From NCBI RefSeq assembly GCF_053078305.1, contig NZ_CP166879.1: DNA of 64,000 nt; one strand, written 5' to 3'. The stretch's first letter is position 1, and each line of letters begins with the position of its first letter. This document shows positions 25,529-25,935 of this stretch, piece by piece. Under the pieces are notes generated by a model. It was not told the origin of the DNA and ran no database searches. It worked only from the letters and a program-made list of their open reading frames with translations. The translations under genes and the position numbers were made by a program.

Positions 25529-25935
25529 ATAAAATTCCTTAGATCTAGACCGTGCGTAACAAGCCATGCAGAATTTGAAGATAAATCGTAGTAAATATTC
25601 ATAGTGAAATAAGCAATAAAGAAATGCTTATATAATTCACAAAATCAATATTAAAATCAGGCAAGTAAAAGCATACAAAAAAACAGTTGATGGAATTATA
25701 TTCCACAAAAAACTCACTTCAATCTAAAAATTAACGACAAAAAACAAAAACACACTAATAATTCATTGACGCTGCATATATATTTTGTGATTACATATAT
25801 ATTGGTAATGATTTGTTATTTAAGGGAAGGATATATAAGGTTTTTGTAGAAATACCCACGGTAATTAAGCATGCTAACGTCAGTTTAAATACTGTAAAAG
25901 ATCATTAATAGATACATTTTGTAGCCAACTATAAT

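Follow-up and report, generated by a model that had tools for sequence, protein, structure and literature searches.

A probably imported, island-free haplotype in place of the K-12-type ydbL-paa-ydbA block in Escherichia coli

Between ydbH and pdxI, the 64,000-nucleotide stretch of DNA analysed here (contig NZ_CP166879.1 of RefSeq assembly GCF_053078305.1; hereafter the window) carries an alternative haplotype in which the 3′ end of ydbH, ynbE, ydbL, a spacer and ydbA follow one another without the catabolic island of K-12, and which replaces the K-12-type block at this locus. This haplotype, which occupies about 19527 to 26506, is distinct from that of K-12 and is not an empty or deleted K-12 site; it was most likely acquired by import. 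Here, we describe its structure, its breakpoints, its near-identity to DNA of Escherichia sp. E1V33 and its frequency among complete E. coli genomes, and we weigh the ways in which it could have arisen. The coordinates of the features are collected in Table 1.

Table 1. Features of the ydbH-ydbA region in the window
Feature	Position	Strand	Description
Block left edge	19527..19672		Spacer between pdxI and the ydbA 3′ end; K-12 identity changes from 97-99% to 77-92%
BigA/YdbA-family autotransporter gene at the ydbA position	19673..25528	-	Intact, 1951 aa; divergent, internally mosaic allele
30-bp tandem repeat, 11.8 copies	24872..25222	-	From TRF and translation; encodes PVPPDDGGDT decapeptides close to the autotransporter N-terminus
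ydbL-ydbA spacer	25529..25935		407 bp, AT-rich; predicted upstream region of this ydbA allele, probably inherited with it
Candidate sigma-70 promoter for ydbA	25695..25722	-	-35 TTGAAG, 16-nt spacing, -10 TATAAT; 10/12 consensus, best in the spacer
ydbL, divergent allele	25936..26259	-	Pfam DUF1318
ynbE lipoprotein gene, E1V33-type allele	26267..26452	-	Pfam Lipoprotein_19; inside the E1V33-type tract
Right-hand breakpoint	26506..26522		About 60-70 nt inside the ydbH 3′ end
Relic patch of E1V33-type sites	26853..26869		Six consecutive sites in otherwise E. coli-type ydbH

The locus in K-12 and in the window

The end of ydbL (1446206) and the start of ydbA (1465392) in K-12 MG1655 are 19,185 bp (19.2 kb) apart. 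The stretch between them contains feaR, feaB, tynA, paaZ, paaABCDEFGHIJK, paaXY and ynbG, so that the island of about 20 kb that an earlier note on this DNA had given for K-12 measures about 19 kb in the MG1655 annotation. The same note had placed ydbL and ydbA of the window only about 400 bp apart, at 25529-25935, and these coordinates are exact: with ydbL at 25936-26259 and the likely ATG of ydbA at 25528, preceded by AGGA, the gap is 407 bp. A mechanically made list of open reading frames starts ydbA at an upstream ATG (25567); the RefSeq annotation of the near-identical strain A16 has the same ydbA start as 25528 and gives the same 407-bp gap.

The fea-tyn-paa segment is indeed absent from the locus. 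Neither tblastn with 18 island proteins nor a sensitive blastn search with the 19.2-kb island DNA gave a match in the gap, and thus no paa or tynA fragment was found within 25529-25935; the sole match of the island queries in the 64-kb window was the paralogue aldA, an aldehyde dehydrogenase gene at 4012-5430. The gap is also AT-rich (27% GC; GC fraction 0.27-0.29) and free of ORF remnants, as first described, the small ORFs that overlap it being chance ORFs of at most 39 aa, none of which is K-12 ynbG. A search of Rfam at E ≤ 1 over 24500-27000 returned none. The strain would therefore be without the route from 2-phenylethylamine through phenylacetate to the TCA cycle at this locus. It is predicted not to use 2-phenylethylamine, tyramine or phenylacetate via TynA, FeaB and Paa, and periplasmic H2O2 production by the amine oxidase is predicted to be missing as well. 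A uniform lack of this trait in O157:H7 has already been reported (PMC4640556).

Such a gap could have arisen in situ, if a K-12-like ancestor had lost feaR to paaY and left the island-flanking spacers behind as the 407 bp. Two junctions served as positive controls for a scar of this kind. The 374-bp spacer of Nissle 1917 (L005 9328-9701) is composed of nt 1-64 of the K-12 ydbL-feaR spacer and nt 14-330 of the paaY-ydbA spacer (64 + 317 nt), and represents exactly the site of the K-12 segment, either empty or deleted. In E41-1, a feaR fragment is fused to a paaY fragment (feaR′/paaY′), an obvious internal deletion. When the 407 bp of the window were compared by blastn at word size 7 with both K-12 spacers, with the spacers of Nissle, CB7286, AF14 and E41-1 and with the 19-kb island, 12-nt chance matches were the best obtained. 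The earlier note had proposed a search of the gap for short repeats marking an insertion or deletion; over 25400-26050 it yielded only short AT-rich chance matches, with no flanking direct repeats and no IS or REP remnant, and hence no scar. The search was reasonable in itself, and no scar is expected here. That the gap is a deletion scar, or the K-12 segment's empty site, was rejected on the lack of blastn similarity to the K-12 spacers and island and of any tblastn match.

Loss in situ is not without precedent. The arrangement ydbL-feaR-feaB-tynA, with or without paaZ and paaA, occurs in Citrobacter, Raoultella, Pseudocitrobacter, Pluralibacter and some Enterobacter, and is therefore old in the Enterobacteriaceae. 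The adjacency of ydbL and feaR in these other genera also means that an island-free state must once have arisen by loss in some lineage, an event that is not visible here. Within E. coli, island deletions are known from the relics in E41-1 and from strain B, where an IS is reported to have removed paa (PMC3032704). At the present locus, however, the 407 bp are unlike either K-12 spacer and unlike island DNA, the neighbours on both sides are alleles of 55-90% identity instead of K-12-like ones, and the same spacer is present in an island-free non-coli Escherichia. An in-situ deletion is thus extremely improbable.

The K-12 segment itself, as delimited by comparison with Nissle (L001 6208-6271 + 25076-25392), spans L001 6272-25075 (~18.8 kb). 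Its edges have microhomology of at most ~3 nt, with no direct repeats and no target-site duplication. It was considered as a classical mobile genomic island, for which an integrase or transposase, a tRNA or att site and flanking direct repeats would be expected, and rejected as such: only catabolic and regulatory genes are annotated between ydbL and ydbA, the edges have no direct repeats, and the linkage of ydbL and feaR is syntenic in other genera of Enterobacteriaceae.

The extent of the difference from K-12 is apparent from the identity profile. Identity to K-12 is 98-100% from 26522 rightward and 78.6% over 26001-26500, which covers ydbL, ynbE and the last ydbH codons (75-82% for ydbL and ynbE). 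The stretch 21525-25937 is not alignable to K-12; identity is 77-92% over 19500-21500, the 3′ third of ydbA, and 95-99% below 19500. From this profile and the divergent flanking alleles, the difference is a block replacement, ~7 kb in the window vs ~26 kb in K-12. The earlier reading of the gap as an island junction between one conserved gene pair therefore had to be given up: the flanks are deeply divergent alleles, the spacer is unlike the K-12 spacers, and the whole block is replaced. On comparison with K-12 and other E. coli, the absence of the island was borne out and a simple insertion or deletion at the junction was not.

Outside the block, the flank from hrpA to pdxI (6500-19500, including ynbA-D and ydbD) has ~95-98% identity to K-12 and the ydbH-abgT flank ~99%. 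The Rac prophage, which in K-12 occupies 23 kb between ttcA and ttcC, is absent at ~37136-37178, where the aligned K-12 position passes directly from 1434959 to 1411941; the two alignment segments overlap by 43 bp, which correspond to the attachment core. The best complete-genome relative of the window has 99.2% identity to it over 25 kb, and the draft assembly GCA_025442155.1 has 99.91% identity over 20 kb.

The spacer and the genes of the block

The 407 bp are predicted to be a 5′ regulatory or promoter region native to this ydbA allele. The candidate promoter sits ~167 nt upstream of the ydbA start codon, and both of its hexamers are kept in the spacer of E. whittamii (TTGAAC / TATATT). That spacer has ~67% identity to the one in the window, a degree of homology from which we infer that the spacer is old and belongs with this ydbA type. 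The spacer of E1V33 differs from that of the window at 2 positions. A scan of the minus strand for intrinsic terminators predicted none downstream of ydbL. Binding of H-NS to the spacer is plausible, as would be predicted for DNA of 27% GC from what is generally known of H-NS.

The gene that follows belongs to the BigA/YdbA autotransporters: its product matches Pfam BigA_N (PF25784, 1.2e-31) and BigA_beta (PF25783, 1.2e-25), its N-terminus, MQRKKLLSVCVAMALSSQTWA, is signal-like, and the gene lies between ydbL and pdxI. The autotransporter beta-domain PF03797 was not reported for it at E ≤ 0.001, and was recorded for truncated copies of the same gene. The protein has 54.6% identity to a rebuilt K-12 YdbA, and its passenger part gives no DNA-level alignment to K-12. 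Among carriers of the same haplotype, ydbA consists of patches with 87-97% identity, so that ydbA is itself mosaic. The passenger stretch 22400-24400 is only 91-97% identical to nine other E. coli loci with the same YdbL (L057-L064, L066) and to ES5, A16 and EDL933, and 99.8-100% identical to GCA_025442155.1 (L065), a contrast that points to extra recombination patches inside ydbA.

The state of the gene varies among strains. K-12 ydbA is split by IS2 and IS30, and the gene is intact here; the copies of EDL933 and ES5 are annotated as two fragments or pseudogenes, and in several other carriers ydbA is truncated or IS1-disrupted. Draft assemblies such as E1V33 break at the tandem repeat array, the E1V33 contig end corresponding to 25167.

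On the other side of the spacer, YdbL has an amino acid identity of 72.9% to K-12, 100% to E1V33, 90% to E. whittamii and 81% to E. albertii, and YnbE has 90.2% to K-12. The two proteins match PF07027 and PF13617, and the order ydbH-ynbE-ydbL was confirmed. After ynbE comes ydbH (26449-29088), whose product is 98.6% identical to K-12 YdbH and has 12 changes, 5 of them among its final 17 residues. YdbH is a putative phospholipid-transport protein, and YdbL and YnbE carry annotations as its partners; these two were exchanged together as divergent alleles (25936-26452; L001 5688-6207), while YdbH stays E. coli-type save for its last ~17 residues. Wherever the exact YdbL protein was found (10/10 contexts), ydbL is followed by a spacer of ~407 bp and a BigA-type gene, either intact, truncated or IS1-disrupted, and feaR is never adjacent.

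Edges of the block and its relatives outside E. coli

At the left edge, the window has few mismatches to K-12, CB7286 and AF14 below 19373, and they become dense from 19527-19540 on. The right edge was scored at positions that distinguish K-12 from E1V33. Between 25936 and 26506, 125/128 of these carry the E1V33 state in the window; between 26522 and 28400, 218/242 carry that of K-12 (Fisher p ~1e-76). This abrupt switch of nearest relative is what import by homologous recombination leaves at an edge. The breakpoint in GCA_025442155.1 is that of the window. The comparison with E1V33 covers the window from 25167 rightward, and the left edge is defined by comparison with other E. coli alleles only.

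E1V33 is an unclassified Escherichia, for which no match was found in the literature. Over ydbK-ldhA it has 95-99% identity to E. whittamii and ~87% to E. coli. Against the window, its DNA is 99-100% identical from 25167 to 26506 and ~87% identical beyond, with a sharp switch between the two. These values bear on a history without any import, in which the haplotype would be an ancient polymorphism held vertically in E. coli, for instance if YdbA, a surface protein, is under balancing selection. Such a history would fit the coexistence of at least five divergent ydbA alleles with unrelated upstream spacers, the decay of divergence with distance from ydbA and the mosaic ydbL of CB7286 and AF14. 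Vertical retention should, however, leave species-level divergence, and the copies in E. coli and E1V33 are 99-100% identical vs ~87% for the flanks; a polymorphism kept without import is accordingly very unlikely.

If the haplotype was imported, its direction of travel has to be judged from the tracts. The atypical tract of E1V33, judged against E. whittamii, reaches ~27760-27900, where it has ~87% identity to all the E. coli examined, even to EDL933 with its longest tract. Nesting of the E. coli tract within that of E1V33 favours an E1V33-like donor, and judged from this nesting, transfer from a non-coli lineage into E. coli is the somewhat more probable direction. The opposite would be a block that was native to some E. 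coli and reached the E1V33 lineage by export. E1V33 has only 82-85% identity to E. whittamii across this region and 95-99% elsewhere, which implies that E1V33 received or retained foreign DNA and would be consistent with such an export. Among the E. coli examined, however, there is no donor with a tract as long as that reaching ~27760-27900 in E1V33, and the window-type YdbL is less like that of K-12 (73% aa) than those of E. whittamii (90%) and E. albertii (81%). Export from E. coli is therefore unlikely. As E1V33 is mosaic with respect to E. whittamii, it may also be another recipient, from a third lineage, and not the source.

On the right, the E1V33-type tract extends to 26905 in EDL933; it stops at 26764 in ES5 and A16, and already at 26506 in the window. 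The relic patch in ydbH is common to the window, ES5 and A16, and it falls inside the tract that is still intact in EDL933. Nested right ends of this kind are the pattern expected of an older single import eroded by later short E. coli-type patches.

The preferred reading, import of an island-free haplotype, can be outlined as follows. The ~7-kb block would have taken the place of the ~26-kb ynbE-ydbL-feaR-feaB-tynA-paaZ-paaA..Y-ydbA block through a swap by homologous recombination in the conserved flanks. The 407 bp would have come as a native part of the ydbA allele, not created by loss or gain of the island. Import into E. coli would most likely have been from a non-coli Escherichia lineage like E1V33. 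Once in E. coli, the haplotype would have passed into different backgrounds, the O157:H7/O55:H7 lineage among them, and short E. coli-type recombination patches would later have worn back its right edge.

The locus differs among other members of the genus as well. A scan based on YdbL, with one genome per species, gave 46 loci. In E. albertii (L012 5300-5472), ydbL is directly followed by pdxI, with no island and no ydbA; in E. whittamii (L010 10832-10961), ydbL is followed by the spacer, the first ~100 bp of ydbA and then pdxI. SCPM-O-B-8794 (L011 2865-12785), which is labelled E. coli, has ydbH and flanks with ~87-88% identity to K-12 and a window-like ydbL (82-85% DNA identity), with a feaR..paaA segment of ~95% identity to K-12 beginning 80 bp after ydbL. 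Its island is less diverged than its flanks, which suggests that the island too crossed Escherichia lineages.

Haplotypes in E. coli and comparison with known variable regions

Population counts were made over 5426 complete E. coli genomes. The locus is strain-variable, as the earlier note had supposed: tynA is present in 3284/5426 and the K-12-type ydbL-feaR junction in 3278/5426, so that tynA is essentially confined to the K-12-type junction. From these counts, paa is probably absent elsewhere in the genome of the present strain. The Nissle-type junction, including forms with feaR′/paaY′ relics, was found in 1036/5426, the CB7286-type spacer in 142/5426 and the AF14-type spacer in 42-47/5426. 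The window-type spacer is present as a single copy in 374/5426, of which ~311 are of the O157:H7/O55:H7 type at ~98% identity and 63 have at least 99%; it thus provides a clean single-copy marker of this haplotype.

CB7286 and AF14 have other ydbA alleles, with spacers of 425 bp and 452 bp. Comparison of the distinct arrangements indicates that no fewer than five ydbA alleles, deeply divergent and each preceded by an upstream region of its own, are present in E. coli, and divergence spreads from ydbA into ydbL to differing depths among them. YdbA may be under selection. It is possible, and we raise it only tentatively, that the ydbA locus is a genus-wide hot spot of cassette exchange, in which a ynbE-ydbL allele, a private promoter region and an autotransporter allele would move together between species and phylogroups under diversifying selection, with the phenylethylamine/phenylacetate pathway hitchhiking with the ydbA allele. 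If so, the metabolic trait of O157:H7 would be a by-product of recombination at an antigen locus and not of metabolic selection.

The absence of this island from some E. coli has been reported before. As far as the available parts of the two papers go, tynA was PCR-negative in 28/28 O157:H7 isolates and missing from CFT073 (PMC4640556), and heterogeneity was described for the paa region, which lies between ydbH-ynbE-ydbL and ynbC and includes ydbA (PMC4951805). The locus and the difference in gene content in these passages are those of the window, and the window-type spacer is the spacer of O157:H7 and O55:H7 genomes; the core of the finding is therefore already known from the published absence of tynA and paa and the heterogeneity of the region. 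In the same passages, however, the O157:H7 and CFT073 cases are treated as presence or absence of genes, whereas here a divergent haplotype is described, with mapped edges and near-identity to a non-coli Escherichia. In the portions available of the literature searched, haplotype replacement, mapped breakpoints and near-identity to a non-coli Escherichia were none of them found stated.

A call of island presence or absence can thus hide the replacement of a full haplotype. As the apparent core genes ydbL and ynbE are at 73-90% identity, pan-genome pipelines may split or mis-cluster them. The locus also adds one more well-mapped inter-species import into E. coli, the O157:H7 lineage included, under the reading preferred here.

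The junctions of Nissle 1917 and E41-1 resemble that of the window in lacking the island and in the short distance, a few hundred bp, between ydbL and a ydbA-type gene. They differ in that they consist of K-12-type spacer sequence (64 nt + 317 nt) or of feaR′/paaY′ fragments, with which the window spacer shares nothing. There is also a likeness to the surface-antigen loci rfb and fim, which are recombination hot regions in E. coli (PMC4032127); the ydbA locus is not named among the hot regions in that paper. Recombination near variable loci for surface proteins is well known; the mosaic detail described here adds a new instance of it and does not change the known picture of how such regions evolve. 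Like rfb and fim, the ydbA locus combines divergent surface-protein alleles, mosaic flanks in which divergence decays with distance, and a linked accessory segment.
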